Assembly: GCF_965219775.1 (NCBI RefSeq)
Contig: NZ_OZ244793.1
Location: 1,844,757-1,908,756, forward strand
Origin: Candidatus Poriferisocius sp.
GTDB taxonomy: Bacteria > Actinomycetota > Acidimicrobiia > Acidimicrobiales > Bin134
DNA length: 64,000 nucleotides
Direction of reading: 5' to 3'
Position numbers and translations under genes: made by a program. Below are positions 25,996 to 48,865 of this stretch, piece by piece; the first letter of the stretch is position 1; the number at the start of each line of letters is the position of its first letter. Below the pieces are notes generated by a model that did not search any database, was not told where the DNA came from, and saw only the letters and a list, made by a program, of their open reading frames with translations.

Positions 25996-26346
25996 ATGGC
26001 TGAGATCGCCGTGTATCACAACCCTGGTTGAGGCAAGTCCCGGGGCGCGCTGGAGATTCTCGAGGCGCGCGGCGTCGAGTTCGACGTCATCAAGTACCTG
26101 GACACCCCCCTCAGCCGGTCCGACCTGGAGCGGTTCCTGGAGATGCTGCCCAACGAACCCTCCGAGCTGGTTCGGCGCGACAACCACTTCAAGCAACTCG
26201 GGCTGGACATCGACGACTATCAGGAGGCCGATGCGGTGATCGACCTGTTGCTGGAGCACCCCAAGCTGATGCAGCGCCCGGTGGTGGTGCGGGGTGACCG
26301 GGCGGTGATCGCCCGGCCCTCGGAGCTGGTCGAAGAGCTGTTGTGA
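25996..26346 (+). CDS. ArsC/Spx/YffB-family redox protein with an in-frame TGA (26029..26031) at the catalytic Cys position; either a selenocysteine candidate or a nonsense pseudogene
   Basis: Manual frame-1 translation gives MAEIAVYHNPG-TGA-GKSRGALEILEARGVEFDVIKYLDTPLSRSDLERFLEMLPNEPSELVRRDNHFKQLGLDIDDYQEADAVIDLLLEHPKLMQRPVVVRGDRAVIARPSELVEELL (116 codons). It is colinear with R773 ArsC (IYHNPACGTSR...NRP). The ORF track shows only 26143..26346. The stop overlaps the next gene's GTG (GTGA). Confidence 0.6.
26045..26070 (+). other. GC-rich hairpin 14 nt downstream of the in-frame UGA (bacterial SECIS-like position)
   Basis: GCGCGCT (26045-51) pairs with GGCGCGC (26064-70), giving 6 GC pairs plus one G-U. 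The 12-nt loop GGAGAUUCUCGA can form a further 3-bp GAG/CUC stem. Confidence 0.4.
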
Positions 26347-27188
26347 CCACGACACCGGTGACGGCGCGCTCGGGGGGAGAAATGCTGGTGGCGGGCCCCG
26401 GCGGGCTGCCCTTCCCGGTGGCCGCGGTGTGGCGGCGGGCGCTGGCCCGGCTCATCGACGCCATCACCGTGTTCTTCATTCAGTGGATGCTCACGGTGAT
26501 CCAGTTGCTGTGGTTCATGGACGACGTGTCCACCCGCTGGCAGCCCGACCCCTGGGGGCGGGCGTCGGCCGCCGTGCTGGTGTACGTGTTCTTCCACTTC
26601 GTCTACACCATGGTGTTCCTGCGCTGGAACGAGGGGCAGACCCCGGCCATGGACCTCATGAACCTCCGGGCGGTGCGCACCGCCGACGGCAGCCATCTCG
26701 GGCTGGGCCGGTGTGCGCTCCGCTGGCTGGTGGGCGGGGCGTCGTGGGCGGTGCCGCCGGTGCTGTTCGGCGGGCTGGTGGTGAACGCCGCCACCTACTT
26801 GCCGGTGGCCTTCGACCGCCGTCGCCGCACGGTGTCGGATTGGCTGGCGGGTACCACGGTGATCGCGTACGACCGCGACAAGGAGGATCCCGGCGACCAG
26901 CCCGACGAGGTGCTCGACGAGTTCGGCCGACCCCTGTCGGTTCGGGCCCAGATTCGGCGCAAGTACGGGCTGTTGGGGATCTTCGGCGGCATCGGTGATC
27001 TGCCCGGCCGCCGCCGCAATCAGCCCCCCGCCGGCCGCCAACCGTCTCGGGATTCCCGGCGGCGCCAAGATTCGCTTACCATGTCGGCCACAACCAGGTC
27101 GGCATCGACACGACCGGGAGGCGGCGCCACCGAGGCCCGCCGCCCCGGGTCGGTCGGAGAACAACGGGGGGAGAGCCGTGGAAGCTGA
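26343..27188 (+). CDS. RDD-family membrane protein with a basic, disordered C-terminal tail
   Basis: WRRALARLIDAI... then TM segments then ...RRRRTVSDWLAGTTVI, giving the R-D-D signature positions. The GTG start overlaps the arsC-like stop. The end overlaps the dppD-like start by 11 nt. Confidence 0.7.
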   Translation: MTTTPVTARSGGEMLVAGPGGLPFPVAAVWRRALARLIDAITVFFIQWMLTVIQLLWFMDDVSTRWQPDPWGRASAAVLVYVFFHFVYTMVFLRWNEGQTPAMDLMNLRAVRTADGSHLGLGRCALRWLVGGASWAVPPVLFGGLVVNAATYLPVAFDRRRRTVSDWLAGTTVIAYDRDKEDPGDQPDEVLDEFGRPLSVRAQIRRKYGLLGIFGGIGDLPGRRRNQPPAGRQPSRDSRRRQDSLTMSATTRSASTRPGGGATEARRPGSVGEQRGESRGS

Positions 27189-30776: not shown

Positions 30777-31646
30777 GTGCCCGACAACCAGAGCAACGAA
30801 GACGACACAGCCCAAGCCCCAGCAGACCTCGCCGGACAGGTCCGGGACATCACCGTCAGCGGCCTACCCCCCGGCTACGACTACAAGGCAACCCGCCACG
30901 CCGATGTCATTCTCAAGGAGGCCTTTCCCAACCGATTTCACGACCTGAGAAGGGCACTGGAGCAATTCAATCCCACTCTCGATGAACTTAGAAGGGGCGG
31001 GGGTGGAAGAACTGTCTTCGTGAAGCGGTTCGATGAGTCTCTGGCTACTCAACTCGAGCAAGACACCAGAATCTGGGGTAAGCAGAAAATCTCCATCGAA
31101 AAGGCAATTGGATTCGAAGGCAACCTGACACCTGTGTCGAAAGTAAGGAGCCATGAGATCGATATGTTCGGCCTCGGATCCCTGGAGCAGCCACTTCCTG
31201 GCATCGCGGTAGAGATGGAATGGAACAACAAGGATCCCTTCTTCGATCGTGACCTCATCAACTTCCAAGCACTTCACCACGAGGGGGCAATCGCCGTCGG
31301 GGTCGTTGTCACCCGAGGTAGAGGTCTTCAAGACCTCATTTCGGGCGTCATACAGAGCAAGGATGGTGGGTTCAAGTACGGTGGATCCACCACCCACTGG
31401 GACAAACTGATCCCCAGAGTCAACCTCGGTGGCGGTGGCGAGTGTCCGCTTCTGCTCATAGGCATTCTGCCCGAACGCATCCAAGGCATCGAGCTGGCCG
31501 AGAGAGTCCGGGCGAAATTGGATGAAGCTGAAACACTGAGAGCGTCGTGGCGTGACACTTTTGCTAGTTGGGAAGAAGCCAAGCCAATCTATGAGGAAAT
31601 GCGTAGAGAGGCGTTTGGCCTCATGCCACCTGTTGGAAGCGAGTGA
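30777..31646 (+). CDS. type II restriction endonuclease, BglII/BamHI-fold (predicted)
   Basis: YKATRHADVILKE resembles the BglII N-terminus (YNHADEILNP). EIDMFG...GIAVEMEWNNKDPFFDRDLINF...AIAVGVVVTRG parallels BglII IDFGKRDTLVEVQFSNYPFLLNN...KVAIIITKG. It is convergent with a methyltransferase, and GC is visibly lower than in the flanks. Confidence 0.6.
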   Translation: MPDNQSNEDDTAQAPADLAGQVRDITVSGLPPGYDYKATRHADVILKEAFPNRFHDLRRALEQFNPTLDELRRGGGGRTVFVKRFDESLATQLEQDTRIWGKQKISIEKAIGFEGNLTPVSKVRSHEIDMFGLGSLEQPLPGIAVEMEWNNKDPFFDRDLINFQALHHEGAIAVGVVVTRGRGLQDLISGVIQSKDGGFKYGGSTTHWDKLIPRVNLGGGGECPLLLIGILPERIQGIELAERVRAKLDEAETLRASWRDTFASWEEAKPIYEEMRREAFGLMPPVGSE

Positions 31647-31666
31647 AATTATGGAGGCTCGATTGC

Positions 31667-32518
31667 TCAGCGATAGGCAGGGTAGGTCTGGCCTCTTGGG
31701 GTGACGCCCTCTTCAGCTTCAAGGCCCCAGGAGACCCAGCCTGCTCTTGGGTAGCGGGCGAACATTTCCAGGTAGGGGCCAGGGGAACAGCCTTCAATGA
31801 TCTCATATTGCTCATCGGGCTTGCGCGAATGCTCCCGCTTGCGGGTTTCGATCATGTTCACCTGGCTGCGGCCGGGTGCCAGGGTTCTCATGCTGCCCCG
31901 GACCCCGAACAAGATCAGCTCGGTGACGTTACGGAAGTAGAACCCGACTCCTCTACCGTCGGGCCCACCGTCCTTGCGTCGCTTGGCCCACACGATGTTC
32001 GACTTGTAGGTGAAGCCCCAGGACTCCATCACCTGCAGCCCGTCGGCTATCAGCGCGTTCGGCACCCACAGATAGAGGTGTGCCTTGTCGGACACGATCT
32101 CCGGAAGGGGAAGGGCCCGAATCTCGGCAGTGGTCATCGTGTCGTACCGGGAGAGCCGCCGATGCTCGGGGGCGACCTTGCCGGTGCGGTTCATGAACCG
32201 CCAGGGTGGATCAGCGAGGACCGTGGAGAACGGCCCTCCCTCCAGCAAGCGAAGATCGTCGGCCACTGGCAAGGCCCCTGGCTTCGGCTCGGCCGCCGCA
32301 GCCAACTCTTCCCTCGACTTGGGCAACACCCGGATTTCGTGTCCCAGCACATCGGCCAGAGCGGCCAGGGTGGAAATCTGCGGGTTGTGACCGTTGCCGG
32401 AAAGCAGCCGCCGGACCGATGCGGGCTGCGTGCCGGCCAGCCGGGCCAACTCGGACTTCGACAGCCCCGCCCTGCGGCGGGCGTCGTCCAACTCCGTCAA
32501 CAACACGTTCGAGGCCAT
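31667..32518 (-). CDS. MT-A70-family DNA N6-adenine methyltransferase with an N-terminal XRE-type HTH domain
   Basis: The N-terminus LSKSELARLAGTQPASVRRLLSG is an HTH. The catalytic DPPW motif (VLADPPWRF) and the downstream NVTELILFG...HSRKP are typical of MT-A70. Confidence 0.85.
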   Translation of the reverse strand: MASNVLLTELDDARRRAGLSKSELARLAGTQPASVRRLLSGNGHNPQISTLAALADVLGHEIRVLPKSREELAAAAEPKPGALPVADDLRLLEGGPFSTVLADPPWRFMNRTGKVAPEHRRLSRYDTMTTAEIRALPLPEIVSDKAHLYLWVPNALIADGLQVMESWGFTYKSNIVWAKRRKDGGPDGRGVGFYFRNVTELILFGVRGSMRTLAPGRSQVNMIETRKREHSRKPDEQYEIIEGCSPGPYLEMFARYPRAGWVSWGLEAEEGVTPRGQTYPAYR

Positions 32519-32662: not shown

Positions 32663-33622
32663 TCACCGGATTTCGGGGTCCGGGCCGTCGGAGAAGGCCC
32701 AGCCGATAACCCGAGCGGCGCGAGCAGGCCTGCTCTTGGGTGCCGACGCAAGCCGCTTGCGGAAGAGCTCTTCAAGGTTCTCAACGGCAGGCGGGGCGTC
32801 GGCCCAAACCAGCTCGTCGTAGCCTTCTGGCTTCAGGGGGGCGCCCTCGCCATCTGGGATCATCCCGTAGAGGTCCCAGGATCGGTACCTGATCATGTCG
32901 CGGACCACAGGATGCGTGTCGGTGGTCTTGGCGAGGAAAGCCGGGGTGCAACACACGTTCCACAGGGCCGTGTAGGAGTGAGGATCCTTTGAGGTCGGCC
33001 AGACGTGGTTGAACTGCACGTCCGGCCCCTTCTTACGCTGTGCCGCCCACAAGAACACACGAGTCGGTGTGGTGTTGTCGTCGTAGAGCACGGTCCCATG
33101 GGGCGGCAGTTCGGCGATCTCATCGCGCCTGGTTGCGTCGCGCACCACGGGGAAGATCGCCTTGCCCTCGGACTGTTCCACTGTTGCAGGATCGAGGAAG
33201 ATCGTATGGGCAGCCACCGCAGCCTCGACCGAGCGGTAGCCGGCGCCCGCCAACACCTCATCGAGGAGCTTCGCCCCATCCTGAATCACCGGTCTGGACC
33301 CTCGACGGCCGGACGCTGACAGCCGAAATGGTGCCGAGCCTCCCGCCTCAGTCCCGCCCACCGACCCAGCAGTTGGATCCAGGGCTGCCCTGCGGTACTG
33401 CCCCCGCCCAATTCGCTCGAGGTCTGCCCATCCGTAGCTTGATACTCCGCGCACCATGTGACTGCATACGTGGTTCCTGATCGTGGACGACTTCCAACGG
33501 GACCAGTTCGACTCAACCTCCCGGACGATTTCTTCGACCGCAAACACCTGTGGGCCGTGCTGGCCCTCAAGAAGGCTCATCGCCTCCATGACTGCTTCCC
33601 TGCACGTCCTAGGCTGCATCAT
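32663..33622 (-). CDS. hypothetical protein: N-terminal winged-helix-like domain plus uncharacterised C-terminal domain (possible His-Me/HNH-like nuclease; speculative)
   Basis: 319-aa ORF. The N-terminus (CREAVMEAMSLL...TIRNHV...LERIGRGQYRR) resembles Mrr_N-type wHTH domains. The C-terminus has DVQFNHVWP...LWNVCCTPAFLAKTTDTH. It is preceded by repeat copy B. I recognise no confident family. Confidence 0.55.
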   Translation of the reverse strand: MMQPRTCREAVMEAMSLLEGQHGPQVFAVEEIVREVESNWSRWKSSTIRNHVCSHMVRGVSSYGWADLERIGRGQYRRAALDPTAGSVGGTEAGGSAPFRLSASGRRGSRPVIQDGAKLLDEVLAGAGYRSVEAAVAAHTIFLDPATVEQSEGKAIFPVVRDATRRDEIAELPPHGTVLYDDNTTPTRVFLWAAQRKKGPDVQFNHVWPTSKDPHSYTALWNVCCTPAFLAKTTDTHPVVRDMIRYRSWDLYGMIPDGEGAPLKPEGYDELVWADAPPAVENLEELFRKRLASAPKSRPARAARVIGWAFSDGPDPEIR

Positions 33623-34535: not shown

Positions 34536-35750
34536 GTGAGCAGAACTGTTGGGAGCACTTCAGAGGCCACCCCCAGAGGCGCCGGGGCGGTGGTGTGGCC
34601 GGTGCCGGTGGACGTGGGTTCGTTGTCCGATGACCGGTTGCGGGACCGGTTGGGGGTGATCGGGCGGGCGGAGTCTTGTTTGTCGGCCATGAAGGCACAG
34701 ACGTTGGCCGAGTTGGCTCGTCGTCACAGTCCGGTGGAAGCAGGCAGGATCGCCCGGCAGGAAACCCGGTCGTCGAAGCGGGCCGCCCGCACCGAGGTGG
34801 AAACCGCAGGGCGCCTCGCCGGGCTGGCTGCCACTTCCGACGCGTTGGGTGCCGGGGTGATACCCGCCGGTCACGCCCGGTTGATCGCCCGGGCCGCATC
34901 CGAGGGGCCGATCGACGAGTCGTTGATGGTGCAAGCAGCCACCCACCAGGACTACGACACGTTCGCCCGGACCATGGCCCGCCACCAACACGAAGCCTCC
35001 GGTGACGACGGCCACGCCCTCCACGAACACAGACTCCAGAAGCGCAGTGCCCGGGTGTTCACCCGACCCGAGTCCGGCATGTTCGTGCTCTCCGCAGAGT
35101 TCGACCCGATCACCGGGGCCCACATCGACACCGTGTTGGCCGCCAAAGTACGTGAACTGTGGAACCAAGAAGACCCCAAAGCCCGGCGCAGTTCCCAACA
35201 GCGCACGGCCGACGCGTTGGCCGAGTTGATCCTCGAACCCGAAAAAGGCAAAACAGCAGGCACCGCCCTGTTGGTCGTCGCCGACTACGACGTCGTCAAC
35301 CAACAACTCACCGACGCCCGCCTCTCCGACGGGACCCCCATCCCCGCCGCCGAACTGGTCCGGTTGGCGTGTGACGCCGACATCCTGCCCGGCGTGTACC
35401 GGGCCGCCACCCAAGAAATGAACCTCGGCCGCAAACGCCGCACCGCCACCACCACCCAACGAGCCGCCCTCACCTACCGGGACCAACACTGCATCGGATG
35501 CGGCACCACCGCCCACCGATGCTTCGCCCACCACATCAAATTCTGGTCCGAAGGCGGCCCCACCGACCTCGCCAACCTCGCACTCGTCTGCAACGACTGC
35601 CACCACAACATCCACGACCACCACTGGACCGTCACCCACAACCCCCACACCAACCGGTGGCACACCCACCCCCCACCCGACCCCTTCCCCACCCACGGAA
35701 CCACCAACACCCCACCCCCACCCCAAACCAACCCCATACTCCGAAAATGA
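34536..35750 (+). CDS. DUF222-domain HNH endonuclease (REP13E12-like family)
   Basis: GTG start after GGGGAGGAGGGG. The helical DUF222 N-terminus (MKAQTLAELARR) and the HNH motif CIGCG...AHHIKFWSEGGPTDLANLALVCNDCHHNIH are typical of the actinobacterial family. Confidence 0.85.
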   Translation: MSRTVGSTSEATPRGAGAVVWPVPVDVGSLSDDRLRDRLGVIGRAESCLSAMKAQTLAELARRHSPVEAGRIARQETRSSKRAARTEVETAGRLAGLAATSDALGAGVIPAGHARLIARAASEGPIDESLMVQAATHQDYDTFARTMARHQHEASGDDGHALHEHRLQKRSARVFTRPESGMFVLSAEFDPITGAHIDTVLAAKVRELWNQEDPKARRSSQQRTADALAELILEPEKGKTAGTALLVVADYDVVNQQLTDARLSDGTPIPAAELVRLACDADILPGVYRAATQEMNLGRKRRTATTTQRAALTYRDQHCIGCGTTAHRCFAHHIKFWSEGGPTDLANLALVCNDCHHNIHDHHWTVTHNPHTNRWHTHPPPDPFPTHGTTNTPPPPQTNPILRK

Positions 35751-36496: not shown

Positions 36497-38836
36497 TCAT
36501 CCCCGTATGGTGCAACTGTCGATGGCATGGTTCAGCGCCCGCTTGATCTCGCTGATGTAGTCGGGGTCGGTCACCTTCTCGCCCTGGGCGTCACGGAGGT
36601 AGTAGGCGTGGACCACGTCGCCGCCCAAGTCCTGCACCTTGGCGCTCAAGATGTCGAGATCGAGCTGGGACAGGGCACTGGTCACCCGGCTGAGCAGGCC
36701 GACGCGGGACTTGGTGGCCAACTCCACGATGGTGGCGGTGGACGACAGCTCGTTGTCCACGGTCAGCTTGGGGGGCACCACCGGCGGGGACGATTCGTTG
36801 ATGGCCGTCCCGTAGGCGTTGATGCGCTCGGTGAGCCGGGCCTCGATGGCCAACCGGCCAGCCAGAGCCTGCTCGACGTGGCCGGTGACCTGGGGCCAGT
36901 CGATGGGCAACCCCAGGATGCTCTCCACCTGGAACCGCTCCAAGGCCATCCCGTACTCGGAATGGGCCGCGGCCAACAGCACCCGCAGGCCGTTGAGGGC
37001 CAACACGCCGGCCACCCGGGAGAACATGCCGTGGCGGTCGGGGGCGAGCACCGTCAGGGTGTCGCCGTCGCCCAGCACGATGCGGCGGCCCACCTCCATC
37101 ATGAGGCGCTGTTCGGGAGTGGGGAAGCGGGAGGTGATCTCGTCGATGCTGCCCCCCTCGGCCACGTGGGCGCAGCGAGCCACCAACTCCTGCACCAGCC
37201 CCGACTTCCAGTTGCTCCACGCCGAGGGGCCGGTGGCCCGGGAATCGGCCTCGGTGAGCGCTCCCAACAGGCGCAGCGTGTCCACCGAGCGCACCTTGCG
37301 GGACACCTCGGCGATGGTGTCGGGATCCTCCAAGTCGCGCCGGGTGGCCACGTCGGGCAGCAGGAGATGATGCTCCACCAGGGCCACCAGCACATCCACA
37401 TCAGTGGGGGGAAAGCCCATGCGGTGGGTGATGTCGGACACCAACTCCATGCCCACCTCGGTGTGGTCGCCGGGATACCCCTTGCCGATGTCGTGGAGCC
37501 AAGCGCCTATCACCAACAGGTCGGGCCGATCCACCCGCTCCACCAGCTCGGCGGCCAACGCGGCGGCCTCGCACAGGTGCCGATCCACGGTGAACTGGTG
37601 GTAGGGGTTGCGTTGAGGCCGGCTGCGGGTGGGCTCCCACTCGGGCAGGATGCGAACGAACAGTTCCGACTGGTCAAGGGCCTCGATGGCGGGCAGGGCG
37701 GCCTTTCCGGCCAACAACAGGTCCACCAGCAACCCGCGGGCGGGGTCGGGCCACGGGTCGGGCATGGGGGCCATGTGTTCCCGGAGCTGATCCAGGCCCT
37801 CCCTGTCCATGCGCAATTGGTGGGTGGCCGCCGCTCGGGCAAAGCGCAGGGCGGTACAGGGATCGGTGAGGTCCGCTTCGGGATCGAGCACGGCCAGACC
37901 CCCGGCGGCGAACACCCCATCGCCGATGGCGGCCTCGGCGGGGGCGGCGCTGGTGCGCTTACGGCGCAGGCGGCGCTCATTGGCCGGTTCGGGCTGTTGC
38001 CACCTAAACCAGTACTCGTCGCTGATCCAGGATATGGACCGACCGGCGGCGGCCACGTCGGCCATCAGCACGTCGGCGTCGGCATACTCCAGCGCAGCGG
38101 CCACCGCGTCCTGATCCTCCAGTTGCAGGGTGTCGCCGGGGCGGCCGGTCACCCGGTGCAGTTCCACCCGAGCCGCCAGCAGCACCTCGTAGCCGTCGCG
38201 CAGCTTGCGCTTGTCGGCGTCGTCCACCGGGAATCCGGCGGCCTCGGCCCAGCGCAGGGCGTGTACGTCCCGCAACCCGCCCCGGCCCTCCTTCAGTTCG
38301 GGTGACACCTTGAAGGCCACCTCGCCGCTGTGGGCATGGCGGTCGGCCACCCGCGTGGCCATTTCCGGCAACCACTGCTGGGCCCGACGCCGCCACTGGT
38401 TGGCGGTGTAGTCGATCAGATCCTGGGTGAGGGCCTCGTCGCCCGCGATGTGGCGGGCCTCCAACAGCGATGTGGCGGTGTCCAGGTCGACCTTGGTCAG
38501 CTCCTTGGCCTCCTTGGGCGACCGCACCGAGTGCCCCAACTTGAGCCCCTCGTCCCACACCGGATACCAGAGCCGGGAGGCGATCTCGCTGATGTCGAGG
38601 CGATCCCGGTGCAGCAGTTGCACGTCGATGTCGCTCTGGGGGCTGAGCTCGGCCCGGCCGTAGCCCCCCACCGCCACCAGCGCCACCCCGTCGTGATCCT
38701 CCACCTCGGCGTCGAAGATGGCCTGGAGCCATTCATCCACGTGACGGGACAGGGATCGGCACAACACCGTGCCCGACAGGCCGCTCTCGGCCAGAAACTG
38801 TTCCCGGTTCAGCTTGCCCGCGGTCGTCGGTGCCAT
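36497..38836 (-). CDS. glnD: [protein-PII] uridylyltransferase / uridylyl-removing enzyme
   Basis: 779 aa with a nucleotidyltransferase domain (GGYGRAELSPQSDIDV), an HD domain (LHDIGKG) and two C-terminal ACT-like domains. Confidence 0.9.
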   Translation of the reverse strand: MAPTTAGKLNREQFLAESGLSGTVLCRSLSRHVDEWLQAIFDAEVEDHDGVALVAVGGYGRAELSPQSDIDVQLLHRDRLDISEIASRLWYPVWDEGLKLGHSVRSPKEAKELTKVDLDTATSLLEARHIAGDEALTQDLIDYTANQWRRRAQQWLPEMATRVADRHAHSGEVAFKVSPELKEGRGGLRDVHALRWAEAAGFPVDDADKRKLRDGYEVLLAARVELHRVTGRPGDTLQLEDQDAVAAALEYADADVLMADVAAAGRSISWISDEYWFRWQQPEPANERRLRRKRTSAAPAEAAIGDGVFAAGGLAVLDPEADLTDPCTALRFARAAATHQLRMDREGLDQLREHMAPMPDPWPDPARGLLVDLLLAGKAALPAIEALDQSELFVRILPEWEPTRSRPQRNPYHQFTVDRHLCEAAALAAELVERVDRPDLLVIGAWLHDIGKGYPGDHTEVGMELVSDITHRMGFPPTDVDVLVALVEHHLLLPDVATRRDLEDPDTIAEVSRKVRSVDTLRLLGALTEADSRATGPSAWSNWKSGLVQELVARCAHVAEGGSIDEITSRFPTPEQRLMMEVGRRIVLGDGDTLTVLAPDRHGMFSRVAGVLALNGLRVLLAAAHSEYGMALERFQVESILGLPIDWPQVTGHVEQALAGRLAIEARLTERINAYGTAINESSPPVVPPKLTVDNELSSTATIVELATKSRVGLLSRVTSALSQLDLDILSAKVQDLGGDVVHAYYLRDAQGEKVTDPDYISEIKRALNHAIDSCTIRG

Positions 38837-38935: not shown

Positions 38936-40129
38936 CTAGTGGTTGTAGGCCAACTCGGCGTGCTGGGTCTGATCAAGGCCGGTGACCTCTTCCTCCACGG
39001 TGGCCCGCAGCCCCATGGTGGCCTTGAGCACCCGGGCGATCACGTAGGTGACCACGAAGCTGTAGGCCATCACCGCCACGATGGATATGACCTGGTTCAA
39101 CAACAGCTCCCCGCCGCCGAAGAAGACACCGTTGATGAAGTCGCCGCCGGGAACCGCACCGGCGTCGGCGAAGAATCCGATGAGGACCCCGCCGATGATG
39201 CCGCCGAACATGTGGACGCCGACCACATCCAAGCTGTCGTCGTAGTTGAAGTGTCGCTTGAGGCTGATGGCCAGAAAGCACAGCACGCCGGCGGCCGCGC
39301 CAATGACGATGGCCGCCAAGGCGCCCACGAACCCGGCGGCCGGGGTGATGGCCACCAGACCGGCAACCACCCCGGACGCAATGCCCAGTGAGGTGGGCTT
39401 GCCCCCGCGAATGATCTCGATCACCATCCAGCCGCACATGCCCGCGGCTGCGGCCAAGAATGTCGTCAGGAACGCGTGGGCCGCCGCCCCATCGGCAGCC
39501 AGGGCCGACCCGGCGTTGAAGCCGAACCAGCCGAACCACAGGATGCCGGCACCCAACATCACGAACGGCAGGTTGTGGGGCAGATCCACGTCGGCCGGCC
39601 AACCCCGCCGGGGGCCGAGGACCATCACGAGGGCCAGAGCGGCAATGCCGGCGTTGATGTGGATGGCCGTTCCTCCGGCGAAGTCGTGGGCGGGCAGCTC
39701 CTTGATCCAACCCTCTCCCGCGTAGATCCAGTAGACCACTGGGGAATACACCAGGAACGACCACAGCGGGACGAAGACGGCCCAGGCGCTGAACTTCATG
39801 CGGGCGGCCACCGCCCCGGAGATCAGCGCCGGGGTGATGACGGCAAAGGTCATCCCGAACACGAACTCCCGCTTGGACACCTCGTCGTCGAGGCCCTCCA
39901 GGAATAGGGCGTCGAAATCGCCGAACAGGGGGAAACTCCAGTTACCGGAGGCGAACCCGTAGCCGAAGAGCACCCACAAGATGGGAACCACCCCCAGGCA
40001 GTAGAGGTTCATATTCAGCATGTTGAGCATGTTCTTGGCCCCGACCATGCCGCCGTAGAACAGCGCCAAGCCCGGCACCATGAACATCACCAAAGCCGCG
40101 CACACCAGAACCCATGCGGTATCGCCCAT
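38936..40129 (-). CDS. amt: ammonium transporter
   Basis: 397-aa, 11-TM Amt/MEP family protein with DFAGGTAIHINAG and GVHMFGGIIG motifs. Confidence 0.9.
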   Translation of the reverse strand: MGDTAWVLVCAALVMFMVPGLALFYGGMVGAKNMLNMLNMNLYCLGVVPILWVLFGYGFASGNWSFPLFGDFDALFLEGLDDEVSKREFVFGMTFAVITPALISGAVAARMKFSAWAVFVPLWSFLVYSPVVYWIYAGEGWIKELPAHDFAGGTAIHINAGIAALALVMVLGPRRGWPADVDLPHNLPFVMLGAGILWFGWFGFNAGSALAADGAAAHAFLTTFLAAAAGMCGWMVIEIIRGGKPTSLGIASGVVAGLVAITPAAGFVGALAAIVIGAAAGVLCFLAISLKRHFNYDDSLDVVGVHMFGGIIGGVLIGFFADAGAVPGGDFINGVFFGGGELLLNQVISIVAVMAYSFVVTYVIARVLKATMGLRATVEEEVTGLDQTQHAELAYNH

Positions 40130-45633: not shown

Positions 45634-48102
45634 TTACGAATCCAGGTCCACGTCTTGGCTGTCGATGGGTACCAGGGCGCCGTCTTGGAATTGGGCGATG
45701 ATGTAACGGCCCCAGGTGGGGTCGCCCACCGCGTCGAGGTCCAACGGACCCGACACCCCGTCGTAATCGATGTCGGCCCCGTCGGCCAACAACCCGGCGC
45801 ACTGCTCATAAGTCGTGCACTTGGTGCCCCCACCAGTCACCGCCTGCACCTGATTGATGATCTCGGTGCCGTCGGTGGAACCCGCCGCCAACGCCGCCAA
45901 CGCCATCACCACCACACAGTCGTACGCCTGACCACCGTAAATCACGTTCCCGTCGGTGATCTCCGCCAACCGGTCGCTGAACTCCGCACCACCGGCCGCG
46001 CCGATCAACTTCATCCCGTCCAACACATTCGCATCCGACGGATCCACCGCAGCAGCCAGATTCGGGTCGAAAATACCATCGGCCCCGTACATCACCGACG
46101 CAGGAACCCCCGCCTCCAACGCACCCCGGATGATCTGCGCGCCCTCGCTGAACGAGATCAACACCACCGCATCGGCACCCATCGCCGACACCTCACCCAA
46201 CGTCGCATCGAAACTCGTCTCATCCGGCGAATACAAGATGACCTGCGAAGCCACCCCGAAGTCATCCAGACCCGACTCCATCAAACCGGCCAACGCACTC
46301 CCGTAATCATCGGCCCGGGCCACAATCGCCACATTCGTCGCCCCATCAGCAGCCACCACATTCGCGATGATCGGCGACACCGCCTCATCCGGCGGCACCG
46401 TCCGGAAGTAATACCCCGCGTTGTCCTGCGTCGAAAACGACGGCGACGTGTTCGACGGCGAACACTGCGGCACCCGCGCGTCATACAACGTCTGAATGAA
46501 CGACTGCGAAATACCCGACGCCGCCGCACCCACAATCACATGAGCACCCTCACCCAACAAACGGTTCACCGCCTCCACCGCAACATCAGGATCCGTACCC
46601 GTATCACCCGTCAACAACGACACCGCACCACCAGCAGCCTGAATATCCTCAACCGCCAACCGGGCACCCTCAACCATCGGCGGCGCCAAAAACGCCAACG
46701 CACCCGTCTCCGGCATCACCCGACCAATCACCAACTCCGGCTGCTCACCCGAAGCGGCGCCGTCGCCCGGATCCTCGTCCATGGCTCCGAGATTGACGTC
46801 TTGGCTGTCGATGGGTACCAGGGCGCCGTCTTGGAATTGGGCGATGATGTAACGGCCCCAGGTGGGGTCGCCCACCGCGTCGAGGTCCAACGGACCCGAC
46901 ACCCCGTCGTAATCGATGTCGGCCCCGTCGGCCAACAACCCGGCGCACTGCTCATAAGTCGTGCACTTGGTGCCCCCACCAGTCACCGCCTGCACCTGAT
47001 TGATGATCTCGGTGCCGTCGGTGGAACCCGCCGCCAACGCCGCCAACGCCATCACCACCACACAGTCGTACGCCTGACCACCGTAAATCACGTTCCCGTC
47101 GGTGATCTCCGCCAACCGGTCGCTGAACTCCGCACCACCGGCCGCGCCGATCAACTTCATCCCGTCCAACACATTCGCATCCGACGGATCCACCGCAGCA
47201 GCCAGATTCGGGTCGAAAATACCATCGGCCCCGTACATCACCGACGCAGGAACCCCCGCCTCCAACGCACCCCGGATGATCTGCGCGCCCTCGCTGAACG
47301 AGATCAACACCACCGCATCGGCACCCATCGCCGACACCTCACCCAACGTCGCATCGAAACTCGTCTCATCCGGCGAATACAAGATGACCTGCGAAGCCAC
47401 CCCGAAGTCATCCAGACCCGACTCCATCAAACCGGCCAACGCACTCCCGTAATCATCGGCCCGGGCCACAATCGCCACATTCGTCGCCCCATCAGCAGCC
47501 ACCACATTCGCGATGATCGGCGACACCGCCTCATCCGGCGGCACCGTCCGGAAGTAATACCCCGCGTTGTCCTGCGTCGAAAACGACGGCGACGTGTTCG
47601 ACGGCGAACACTGCGGCACCCGCGCGTCATACAACGTCTGAATGAACGACTGCGAAATACCCGACGCCGCCGCACCCACAATCACATGAGCACCCTCACC
47701 CAACAAACGGTTCACCGCCTCCACCGCAACATCAGGATCCGTACCCGTATCACCCGTCAACAACGACACCGCACCACCAGCAGCCTGAATATCCTCAACC
47801 GCCAACCGGGCACCCTCAACCATCGGCGGCGCCAAAAACGCCAACGCACCCGTCTCCGGCATCACCCGACCAATCACCAACTCCACATCACCAGCCGGCG
47901 CGGGAGCGGGGGCGGCGGTCTCGTCCGGTTCGGGCGCGGCCGTGGCATCGGCGGTGGGCTGGGCATCGGCCCCGTCGGGCTGATCGTCGTCGTCGTTCCC
48001 ACAGGCGGTGGCCACCAGGGCCAGAACCGCCAGACCGGCCAGCATCCGCAGCCAGAACTTGGACATCGTCTTGCCCTTTGCCGTGTTCGTTGCCGTAGTC
48101 AT
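45634..48102 (-). CDS. LivK-like (type I periplasmic binding fold) substrate-binding lipoprotein containing two identical binding-domain copies
   Basis: ORF 45634..48201. Likely start is ATG 48102 (GGAGG 10 nt upstream) or ATG 48066. Lipobox LVATAC. The 363-aa block ELVIGRVMPETGALAFL...ALVPIDSQDV occurs twice, joined by NLGAMDEDPGDGAASGEQP. Confidence 0.8.
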   Translation of the reverse strand: MTTATNTAKGKTMSKFWLRMLAGLAVLALVATACGNDDDDQPDGADAQPTADATAAPEPDETAAPAPAPAGDVELVIGRVMPETGALAFLAPPMVEGARLAVEDIQAAGGAVSLLTGDTGTDPDVAVEAVNRLLGEGAHVIVGAAASGISQSFIQTLYDARVPQCSPSNTSPSFSTQDNAGYYFRTVPPDEAVSPIIANVVAADGATNVAIVARADDYGSALAGLMESGLDDFGVASQVILYSPDETSFDATLGEVSAMGADAVVLISFSEGAQIIRGALEAGVPASVMYGADGIFDPNLAAAVDPSDANVLDGMKLIGAAGGAEFSDRLAEITDGNVIYGGQAYDCVVVMALAALAAGSTDGTEIINQVQAVTGGGTKCTTYEQCAGLLADGADIDYDGVSGPLDLDAVGDPTWGRYIIAQFQDGALVPIDSQDVNLGAMDEDPGDGAASGEQPELVIGRVMPETGALAFLAPPMVEGARLAVEDIQAAGGAVSLLTGDTGTDPDVAVEAVNRLLGEGAHVIVGAAASGISQSFIQTLYDARVPQCSPSNTSPSFSTQDNAGYYFRTVPPDEAVSPIIANVVAADGATNVAIVARADDYGSALAGLMESGLDDFGVASQVILYSPDETSFDATLGEVSAMGADAVVLISFSEGAQIIRGALEAGVPASVMYGADGIFDPNLAAAVDPSDANVLDGMKLIGAAGGAEFSDRLAEITDGNVIYGGQAYDCVVVMALAALAAGSTDGTEIINQVQAVTGGGTKCTTYEQCAGLLADGADIDYDGVSGPLDLDAVGDPTWGRYIIAQFQDGALVPIDSQDVDLDS
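45650..46738. repeat. copy 1 of the 1089-bp direct repeat (period 1146 bp)
   Basis: Identical to 46796..47884 wherever I compared. The boundaries were read at nucleotide level. Translations in three ORF-track frames (+ and -) are letter-identical between copies (for example 45956..46306 = 47102..47452 and 46281..46535 = 47427..47681). Confidence 0.9.
46796..47884. repeat. copy 2 of the 1089-bp direct repeat
   Basis: See copy 1. The copies are separated by a unique 57-bp linker (46739..46795). Confidence 0.9.
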
Positions 48103-48175
48103 TGCCTCAAGACCTCCAAGGAACTCGTCATCGCATTGTAGGGGGCGGCGGTGACAGTGTGGGGACAGCCGCCGA

Positions 48176-48865
48176 TCATTTTGCCAGATGGGACACCGCA
48201 TCGGTGATAGAGGTCACCATGCCGGTGTAGAAGGGGCCGAACTCGGCGTAGCGGGCCGAGGCGGTGTCGTAGCGCATGGTGTAGACCACGTCCTTGAGGT
48301 CGTCGGGCCGGGTGCAGAACAGGGTCACGCCCCACTCGTGGTCGTCGATGCCCGTCGACCCGGTGATGAGCTGCACCACCCGCCCCGAGAACGTCCTCCC
48401 GGTGGCCCCGTGCTCGTACATCAGCTCCCGTCGCTGCTCATAGGCCAGCTCGTACCAGTTCTGGTCGACGTTGCGCCGTTTGGACATGGGATAGAAGCAC
48501 CACGCCGGTTTCCCCGGCGGGGGCAACTCGGGATACAGGCGGGCCTGCTTGGTGTCGTCGGGCAGGCCCGCGGCGTACTCCGACAACTCGGTGAGCGAGA
48601 CGTAGGAGTCCACCACCTCCAGCCGGGCCCGGGCCAGCGCCGACTGCAGGTCGCGCAGCTTCCACAGATCAGCGTGCAACGCCATGACGGCCAGGTCGGC
48701 CTTGTGGCCCAGCACCACCACCGGCACCACCTGCACGCCGTCGGCCACGGCGGCATCCACCGCTTGGACCACGGCGGCCGCGTCGGTGACCGGCGTGGTC
48801 CGACAGAACAGGTGCACCACCCCGACGCCCTGGGCGGGCTCGACCGGGGACCGGGGAGCGTTCAC
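48176..48865 (-). CDS. hemQ: chlorite-dismutase-family coproheme decarboxylase (HemQ/ChdC)
   Basis: From ORF 48176..49036. WCFYPMSKRR...NWY...RRELMYEHG...GIDDHEWGVTLF is typical of actinobacterial HemQ. The GTG 48865 start is chosen to avoid overlap with the upstream gene and is uncertain. Confidence 0.78.
   Translation of the reverse strand: MNAPRSPVEPAQGVGVVHLFCRTTPVTDAAAVVQAVDAAVADGVQVVPVVVLGHKADLAVMALHADLWKLRDLQSALARARLEVVDSYVSLTELSEYAAGLPDDTKQARLYPELPPPGKPAWCFYPMSKRRNVDQNWYELAYEQRRELMYEHGATGRTFSGRVVQLITGSTGIDDHEWGVTLFCTRPDDLKDVVYTMRYDTASARYAEFGPFYTGMVTSITDAVSHLAK

Follow-up and report, generated by a model that had tools for sequence, protein, structure and literature searches.

Does the in-frame TGA that interrupts an ArsC-family reading frame in a sponge-associated actinobacterium mark a broken gene, or is it the selenocysteine (Sec) codon of an intact one? 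The question is raised by a stretch of 64,000 nucleotides from 'Candidatus Poriferisocius' sp. (assembly GCF_965219775.1, contig NZ_OZ244793.1, positions 1,844,757 to 1,908,756 of the forward strand; hereafter, the window), for which a preliminary description had proposed a selenoprotein gene followed by a hairpin resembling a selenocysteine insertion sequence (SECIS). From the comparative evidence presented here, the region 25996-26346 is very probably a single functional gene that encodes an ArsC-family reductase of 116 residues, and its UGA codon 12 would be decoded as Sec. The selenoprotein reading is upheld by the sharing of the TGA among orthologues, its pairing with Cys in other homologues, purifying selection around it, a constraint on synonymous sites downstream of it and the existence of a known selenoprotein family to which the product corresponds.

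The coordinates of the features under discussion are collected in Table 1. Read from the ATG at 25996, the frame translates as MAEIAVYHNPG*GKSRGALEILEARGVEFDV...ELVEELL*, beginning with GKSRGALEIL after the TGA, and its only in-frame stops are that TGA (26029-26031, codon 12) and the terminal one at 26344-26346. This reproduces the frame and translation given in the preliminary description, along with its remark that the mechanical list of open reading frames (ORFs) holds a 67-aa tail alone (26143-26346). For an identical ENA contig (ERZ26695579, ctg116106), public annotation likewise gives just a 67-aa ArsC fragment, and the call P0099 on the 3.59-Mb Poriferisocius chromosome OX638350.1 has 86 aa, with the N-terminus cut off. 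Two homologues among ENA metagenome proteins (P0001 and P0006) show a Trp at the Sec position, which derives from the use of genetic code 4. What lies here is very probably an unannotated selenoprotein gene, split by gene callers in a sponge-symbiont actinobacterium. The coding signature is not broken by the TGA: G+C content at third codon positions (GC3) is 0.97 over the first 90 nt past it, in a genome with 69% G+C and GC3 above 0.9. A general reassignment of TGA can be discarded, since it is the commonest stop in the window, ending 30 of the 48 predicted genes. A scan of the 64 kb for coding signal running through in-frame TGAs revealed no other selenoprotein genes.

Table 1. Coordinates and strand of the features described in the text, numbered from the first nucleotide of the window.
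Feature	Coordinates	Strand	Description
Selenoprotein gene, complete (predicted)	25996..26346	+	116 codons plus stop; ArsC-type (R773/glutaredoxin-coupled class), Sec at residue 12
UGA codon 12	26029..26031	+	Candidate Sec codon; motif YHNPG-U-GKS (UxxS); homologous to Cys12 of R773 ArsC
Putative SECIS region, codons 13-31	26032..26088	+	Low synonymous variation over both hairpins
Hairpin 1, candidate SECIS core	26045..26070	+	Outer stem GCGCGC(U)/G(G)CGCGC; inner stem 26050..26064
Hairpin 2	26071..26088	+	GGCGUCG-AGUU-CGACGUC, loop 26078..26081; nucleotide-level conservation across phyla
RDD-family membrane-protein gene	26343..27188	+	Pfam RDD PF06271, E = 1e-18; candidate GTG start overlaps the ArsC stop (GTGA)

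Family searches were run with a Cys substituted for the in-frame stop. The product matched Pfam ArsC (PF03960, E = 3e-14) and the NCBIfam model TIGR00014 for glutaredoxin-type arsenate reductase (108.8 bits, with a curated cut-off of 106.05). A phmmer comparison with solved structures aligned residues 1-115 colinearly with residues 1-115 of R773 ArsC (1I9D/1JZW, E = 1e-19), with position 12 on Cys12 and with Arg60, Arg94 and Arg107 kept. The two assignments made earlier, namely a product of 116 codons colinear with ArsC proteins and a TGA located on the codon of the catalytic Cys, are therefore borne out by PF03960, TIGR00014 and the R773 ArsC alignment. The position of U12 and the three Arg residues are invariant in 30 orthologues (described below) and the motif YHNPG-U-GKSR is nearly so. 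The motif reads U12-G13-K14-S15, and Cys is absent from the remainder of the protein. An 'arsenate reductase' family with a UxxS motif (COG1393) figures among the 15 selenoprotein families first reported from the Sargasso Sea metagenome, with 14 sequences carrying predicted SECIS elements (Zhang, Fomenko and Gladyshev 2005, PMC1088965, Table 3), and it has been relisted with TIGR00014 and the representative MBT3519430.1 in reviews of 2022 and 2026 (PMC9312934, PMC13188914). The U12-G-K-S15 motif and the TIGR00014 match place the gene in this family. Membership in two other branches was considered and ruled out: the UxxC 'arsenate reductase-like' model NF041106 is absent among the NCBIfam matches of the product, which has a UxxS motif, and the Spx models gave 20-52 bits, with cut-offs of 75-159; YffB and nitrogenase-associated models also stayed far under their cut-offs.

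Homologues were collected by scanning one genome per bacterial species with peptide patterns that excluded codon 12, which yielded 65 loci, 62 of them resolvable at that codon. The preliminary description had left open a lone TGC-to-TGA nonsense mutation, and had pointed to the state of this codon in orthologues: it is TGA in 49 of the 62 loci and TGC or TGT in the other 13. The closest 29 loci (77-86% identical) belong to sponge-associated Acidimicrobiia, many of them 'Candidatus Poriferisocius' and several represented by closed chromosomes, and all 29 have TGA. The 20 further genomes with TGA come from Myxococcota, 'Deltaproteobacteria', Pseudomonadales and other Gammaproteobacteria, Opitutales, other Acidimicrobiia and a metagenome-assembled genome (MAG) of Microthrix. 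Alignment of a UGA with the catalytic Cys of homologues, together with conserved flanks, is the comparative criterion by which selenoproteins have been recognized (PMC1088965). These data bear on the possibility that the gene is a pseudogene, that is, an ordinary ArsC gene of this strain in which TGC has recently mutated to TGA. The two codons are indeed one base apart, and gene callers annotate fragments only (67 aa in the ENA contig, 86 aa for P0099 in OX638350.1). However, the same TGA recurs in 49 independently assembled genomes of several phyla, among them every one of the 29 Poriferisocius-type species and 20 of other lineages; a systematic error shared by Illumina and long-read assemblies of different laboratories is implausible. 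In addition, the 30 close orthologues (window included, 76-98% DNA identity) all have 116 codons, a single TGA and neither frameshifts nor extra stops, with ratios of nonsynonymous to synonymous substitution (dN/dS) of 0.09-0.23 on the two sides of the TGA. We consider that the nonsense mutation has virtually no chance of being the explanation.

The selection data can be divided further. Among the close orthologues dN/dS (Nei-Gojobori) was 0.09 in codons 1-11, 0.23 in codons 13-49 and 0.15 in codons 50-116; such low values on both sides of the TGA indicate that both are translated and under purifying selection, which agrees with the conservation on either side noticed initially. They also bear on an arrangement with two products, in which an 11-residue leader would end at the UGA and a truncated, non-catalytic ArsC-like protein would start internally, at M50 or V31. 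There is an ATG at 26143, and public annotations make exactly such truncated calls. Nevertheless, codons 13-49 form a run of 37 codons with no start codon that still keeps a coding signature, with GC3 of 0.97 and the dN/dS of 0.23 given above; the catalytic-site motif around the UGA is nearly invariant, and the truncated form would lack, along with the nucleophile, the beta-strand and the helix with which the thioredoxin-like fold begins. Two separate products are thus extremely unlikely, and a single protein read through codon 12 is the interpretation that we follow.

If the UGA is recoded, a signal would be expected in the coding sequence that follows it, and the orthologue set gives a view of this region. 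At residues with 4- or 6-fold degenerate codons, codon entropy averaged 0.37 over codons 13-31, compared with 0.97 for codons 32-116 (Mann-Whitney p = 3e-4), a drop of around 2.6-fold. The rate of synonymous substitution (dS) was 0.23 in codons 13-32, compared with 0.51-0.61 in the remaining codons. In the whole gene, six 4- or 6-fold codons never vary, namely codons 11, 17, 18, 22, 26 and 27. Such suppression of synonymous change would be the footprint expected of a bacterial SECIS. Constancy extends to the other side of the UGA: codon 11 is GGT in 30 of 30 orthologues, despite the strong genomic preference for codons ending in G or C, and codons 8-9 (CAC AAC) are likewise invariant (codons 9-11 lie at 26020-26028 of the window). 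These constant codons just 5' of the UGA may reflect a sequence-context requirement of the Sec codon.

Two adjacent hairpins lie within the constrained stretch. The first, the one proposed in the preliminary description, does exist at 26045-26070, although it starts 13 nt past the UGA rather than 14, and its loop does not begin with GG: in the minimum-energy fold the apical loop is AUU (26056-26058), located 24 nt past the UGA. In most orthologues this hairpin reads GCGCG-CUCGAG-AUC-CUCGAG-(U/G)-CGCGC, and a synonymous CTC-to-CTG change in the window introduces one mismatch in the inner stem. The second conserved hairpin (26071-26088) is an addition to what was described before. Over both hairpins, 93.6% of the cells in an alignment of 27 Poriferisocius-type sequences hold standard pairs, in comparison with 21-54% once the 3' side of the helices is displaced by 1-3 columns. 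For hairpin 2 alone the figure is 98.4%, with a compensatory G-C to A-U change at pair 58-69. The variable sites within the hairpins are the third base of the loop, positions where C or U stands opposite a G, compatible with wobble pairing, and the compensatory change just mentioned.

Comparison with more distant homologues separates the two hairpins. At the position of hairpin 1 a hairpin is present in every clade with Sec forms, with variation in sequence and in pairing register that includes the proteobacterial/myxococcal clade. In three loci of distant Acidimicrobiia, with the 'Ca. Microthrix' MAG among them (L053:3025-3070, L054:3031-3076 and L064:3034-3079), it is a hairpin with a GGUC tetraloop situated 17-23 nt past the UGA; as a SECIS, this form looks closer to the canonical type than the hairpin of Poriferisocius does. 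The mean folding energy of the stretch was -15.0 kcal/mol in Sec forms versus -6.4 in Cys forms, and ranged from -5.3 to -10.2 in Cys forms of similar G+C content. Hairpin 2, in turn, has weaker versions in Cys homologues and is missing from the distant Sec forms L053, L054 and L064, and it may partly be a by-product of the palindrome-like coding sequence for VEFDV (V-E/D-F-D-V). When all clades were analyzed jointly, RNAalifold recovered hairpin 2 only; hairpin 1 is missed because its pairing register differs among clades. Given the clade-wide presence of hairpin 1 and its contrast with the Cys forms, and the part that coding may have in hairpin 2, the former is taken as the candidate SECIS core and the latter as a possible accessory part. 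As a separate observation, in alignment A3 of the myxococcal and gammaproteobacterial Sec forms (L029-L063), columns 10-13 pair with columns 20-23 in a 4-bp stem, GGYU...ARRUC, that encloses the UGA; three sequences show compensatory replacement of C-G by U-A.

A number of results weigh against the reading of this gene as a selenoprotein and arsenate reductase, and have to be set beside the evidence above. The thermodynamic stability of hairpin 1 was no better than chance, with dinucleotide-shuffle z-scores of -0.94 (62 nt) and +0.64 (46 nt), nor was it distinctive when compared with synonymous recodings that followed the codon usage of the window (p = 0.28); hairpin 2 was more stable than 99% of its recodings (p = 0.01). 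Stability at chance level in a sequence with 69% G+C led us to drop it as an argument and to prefer the comparative evidence. The bacterial SECIS (bSECIS) model put forward by Zhang and Gladyshev in 2005 reportedly places the apical loop roughly 16-37 nt from the UGA and is said to carry, as a rule, a G within the first two nucleotides of that loop. The loop of hairpin 1, at 24 nt, falls inside this interval of distances. The AUU loop of hairpin 1, which in relatives is AUC, AUU or AUA, does not have this early G. It would read GAUYC only with the closing G-C pair open, and that G is a C or an A in 7 of the 27 sequences; the loop of hairpin 2, AGUU, fits the early-G rule but lies 46 nt downstream of the UGA. 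No Rfam SECIS model matched the region, and at a permissive threshold chance matches alone appeared around the UGA. Since Rfam covers bacterial SECIS elements poorly, this null result was to be expected.

On the same side of the balance, the TIGR00014 score exceeds its cut-off by a marginal 2.7 bits, and neither arsR, arsB/ACR3 nor other arsenic genes are found among the neighbours in the window; five Sec-form genes of other phyla were likewise devoid of arsenic genes nearby. Such an association is common for ArsC genes of this type, though it does not strictly define them. In this situation it is homology that points to an arsenate-reductase function, and we infer arsenate to be the physiological substrate. 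As for the Sec machinery, ARAGORN and Rfam gave a tRNA-Thr only and no tRNA-Sec in the 64-kb window, and tblastn with the E. coli SelA, SelB and SelD proteins did not detect selA, selB or selD in the window or in the 65 loci; nor do these loci contain a tRNA-Sec. A search of metagenome contigs with the SelA motif GDKLLGGPQAG, back-translated for high G+C, gave at least 80 loci, mostly of soil type and none Poriferisocius-like among the matches listed; among these the best tetranucleotide correlation with the window was r = 0.81, versus 0.92 for true relatives, and similarity to proteins of the window was also negative. In the literature searched, no paper linked Poriferisocius to selenocysteine. 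In favour of Sec decoding, though indirectly, Slaby et al. (2017, PMC5649159) reported SelA and SelB as enriched in sponge symbionts and as occurring together in the majority of their bins, which belong to various phyla, with SelA, SelB and SelD in the Acidimicrobiia bin76 and SelD only in bin134 according to Table S4 of that work, neither bin being demonstrably Poriferisocius. A 2026 preprint describes universal Sec machinery in Actinomarinales, another marine order of Acidimicrobiia.

These results leave room for a reading in which the UGA is passed without Sec, Cys, Trp or Gly being inserted by a near-cognate tRNA, by a suppressor tRNA or by a Cys-charged SelB after the loss of selenium metabolism, while the hairpins would act as a read-through stimulator. 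Such a process would account for the absence of Sec machinery from the window and the 65 loci, for the missing G in the loop of hairpin 1 and for the W in some public translations (P0001 and P0006, in which code 4 was applied). Against it, the site corresponds to the catalytic Cys in this family, and alternation of UGA and Cys is the standard Sec signature; the use of TGA as the commonest genuine stop in the window speaks against a global reassignment, and the same family already figures in catalogues of selenoproteins. Moreover, Trp or Gly in place of the nucleophile would inactivate an enzyme that nevertheless is under strong purifying selection. Read-through with a standard amino acid is therefore very unlikely. 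Maintenance of the TGA in about 30 species under purifying selection means that a dedicated recoding mechanism must exist, and Sec appears as by far the most likely outcome of that recoding.

The scheme that we infer for Sec insertion, the SelB-binding hairpin, the substrate and the reductant would operate as follows. At the UGA, the stem-loop in the next ~60 nt would recruit the SelB·GTP·Sec-tRNA(Sec) complex, which would outcompete release factor 2. Hairpin 1, with its apical loop ~24 nt downstream, is the predicted recruiting element, and hairpin 2 may assist. In the protein, the selenolate of Sec12 would replace the thiolate of Cys12 as nucleophile on arsenate, a related oxyanion or a disulfide-type substrate, which Arg60, Arg94 and Arg107 would hold. 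Because the protein has no other Cys, the resulting Se-adduct would have to be resolved by an external low-molecular-weight thiol and a redoxin.

Several known systems can be compared with this locus. With the UxxS family as described in 2005, it shares the protein family, Sec at the catalytic Cys, the U-x-x-S motif, a stem-loop right after the UGA and widespread Cys homologues. It differs in the host, which here is a sponge-associated member of the Acidimicrobiia ('Ca. Poriferisocius') where the gene is annotated as fragments of 67 or 86 aa, and in having two adjacent conserved hairpins rather than one. The likeness to the ArsC of R773 and E. coli extends to residues 1-115, with the nucleophile at position 12, the three Arg residues and a single redox-active residue; on the other hand, the protein described here has Sec for Cys12, has 116 residues instead of 141, without a C-terminal tail, and is not part of an operon with arsR and arsB or ACR3. 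In an actinobacterial host, the physiological reductant may be other than glutathione and glutaredoxin. SECIS elements of the fdhF type consist of a SelB-binding stem-loop just 3' of the UGA, with a conserved G-U in the loop. As in E. coli fdhF, the hairpin described here is within the coding sequence, starts 13 nt past the UGA with the loop ~24 nt downstream, and coincides with constrained synonymous sites. In contrast to fdhF, the loop of hairpin 1 is AUU or AUC, a GU-containing loop (AGUU) is found in hairpin 2 only, and binding by SelB is a prediction. Finally, the UxxC 'arsenate reductase-like' proteins (NF041106) and the Spx/YffB branches have in common with the product the Pfam domain PF03960, and differ from it in the fourth position of the motif, which here is Ser (UxxS) and not Cys.

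The genes around the ArsC gene are those of a fairly constant neighbourhood. On the opposite strand, the upstream flank codes for two amidohydrolases, a Rieske ring-hydroxylating oxygenase and an aminotransferase. The downstream genes, which share the strand of the ArsC gene, encode the RDD-family membrane protein, a pair of oligopeptide-type ABC ATPases, a GNAT acetyltransferase and a PAC2 protein, and the order amidohydrolase / ArsC / RDD / ABC ATPase is kept in Poriferisocius loci. The overlap between the stop of the ArsC gene and the GTG start of the next one had been used as an argument for translation to the end of the frame. This overlap is present in the window, but among 29 orthologous loci an overlapping start (ATGA or GTGA) that is in frame with the RDD gene occurs in 15, so that the coupling argument holds only in part. 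In the remaining loci the RDD gene is in another frame, with its first candidate start between ~40 nt before and 25 nt after the ArsC stop, and the public gene call puts the RDD start much later. Both genes are probably co-transcribed as an operon, the exact start of the RDD gene being a candidate.

The distribution of the gene raises the question of how it came to be in this host. Identity of the Poriferisocius protein amounts to 65-71% with Sec forms from Myxococcota and Gammaproteobacteria, versus 44-58% with those of other Acidimicrobiia, and this greater closeness to other phyla is a hint of horizontal transfer. The second hairpin, GUCGAGUUCGAC, is conserved at the nucleotide level across Poriferisocius, Myxococcota and Gammaproteobacteria. 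The conserved association with the RDD gene and the absence of ars genes leave space for a function other than arsenic detoxification. Taken together, these data could tentatively be read as a Sec-ArsC gene that has moved horizontally, with its own recoding signal, among unrelated marine and sponge-associated bacteria, having a composite two-hairpin SECIS unlike that of fdhF and a selenium-dependent redox role beyond arsenic; we regard this as a rather unlikely proposal. If it were true, this non-arsenic redox role would form part of the SelA/SelB enrichment in sponge symbionts.

The novelty of the finding is modest, and consists of a host lineage that is new for the family, a gene missed in public records and a clear SECIS footprint derived from the orthologue set. 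General knowledge of selenoproteins is left unchanged, and the value lies in annotation and in SECIS modelling. Orthologues in at least 29 genomes of sponge-symbiont species are publicly recorded only as truncated ArsC fragments, and some metagenomic homologues appear with a Trp; as a result, both the size of the selenoproteome and the arsenic or redox capacity of sponge symbionts are under-counted. A Sec codon in this gene would imply that 'Ca. Poriferisocius' decodes UGA as Sec, which fits the SelA/SelB enrichment reported for sponge symbionts. According to the count of the authors of BSepDB, bacterial SECIS models miss about 13% of known selenoprotein genes, and the orthologue set, with its clean coding-region footprint and two hairpins, could be used for refining them.

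Other features of the window are worth recording. A perfect direct repeat of 1089 bp, with an offset of 1146 bp, occupies 45650-46738 and 46796-47884, within an ORF on the minus strand (45634-48201) that encodes 855 aa with two Peripla_BP_6 domains. Two explanations can be offered: a tandem duplication of very recent date, by which two solute-binding genes became fused, or an artefact of long-read assembly. A gene for a BglII-like restriction endonuclease (30777-31646, plus strand) adjoins one for an HTH/MT-A70 DNA methyltransferase (31667-32518, minus strand), and GC3 in 30777-32518 is 0.81-0.85, below most of the window; this region probably represents a type II restriction-modification island that has been acquired. 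It is followed by an unannotated ORF of 319 aa (32663-33622, minus strand) and a DUF222/HNH endonuclease gene (34536-35750, plus strand). Also on the minus strand, an ammonium transporter gene (38936-40129) adjoins one for a GlnD-like PII uridylyltransferase (36497-38836; GlnD_UR_UTase, HD and ACT domains), a pair that looks like ordinary nitrogen regulation, unrelated to the selenoprotein gene.

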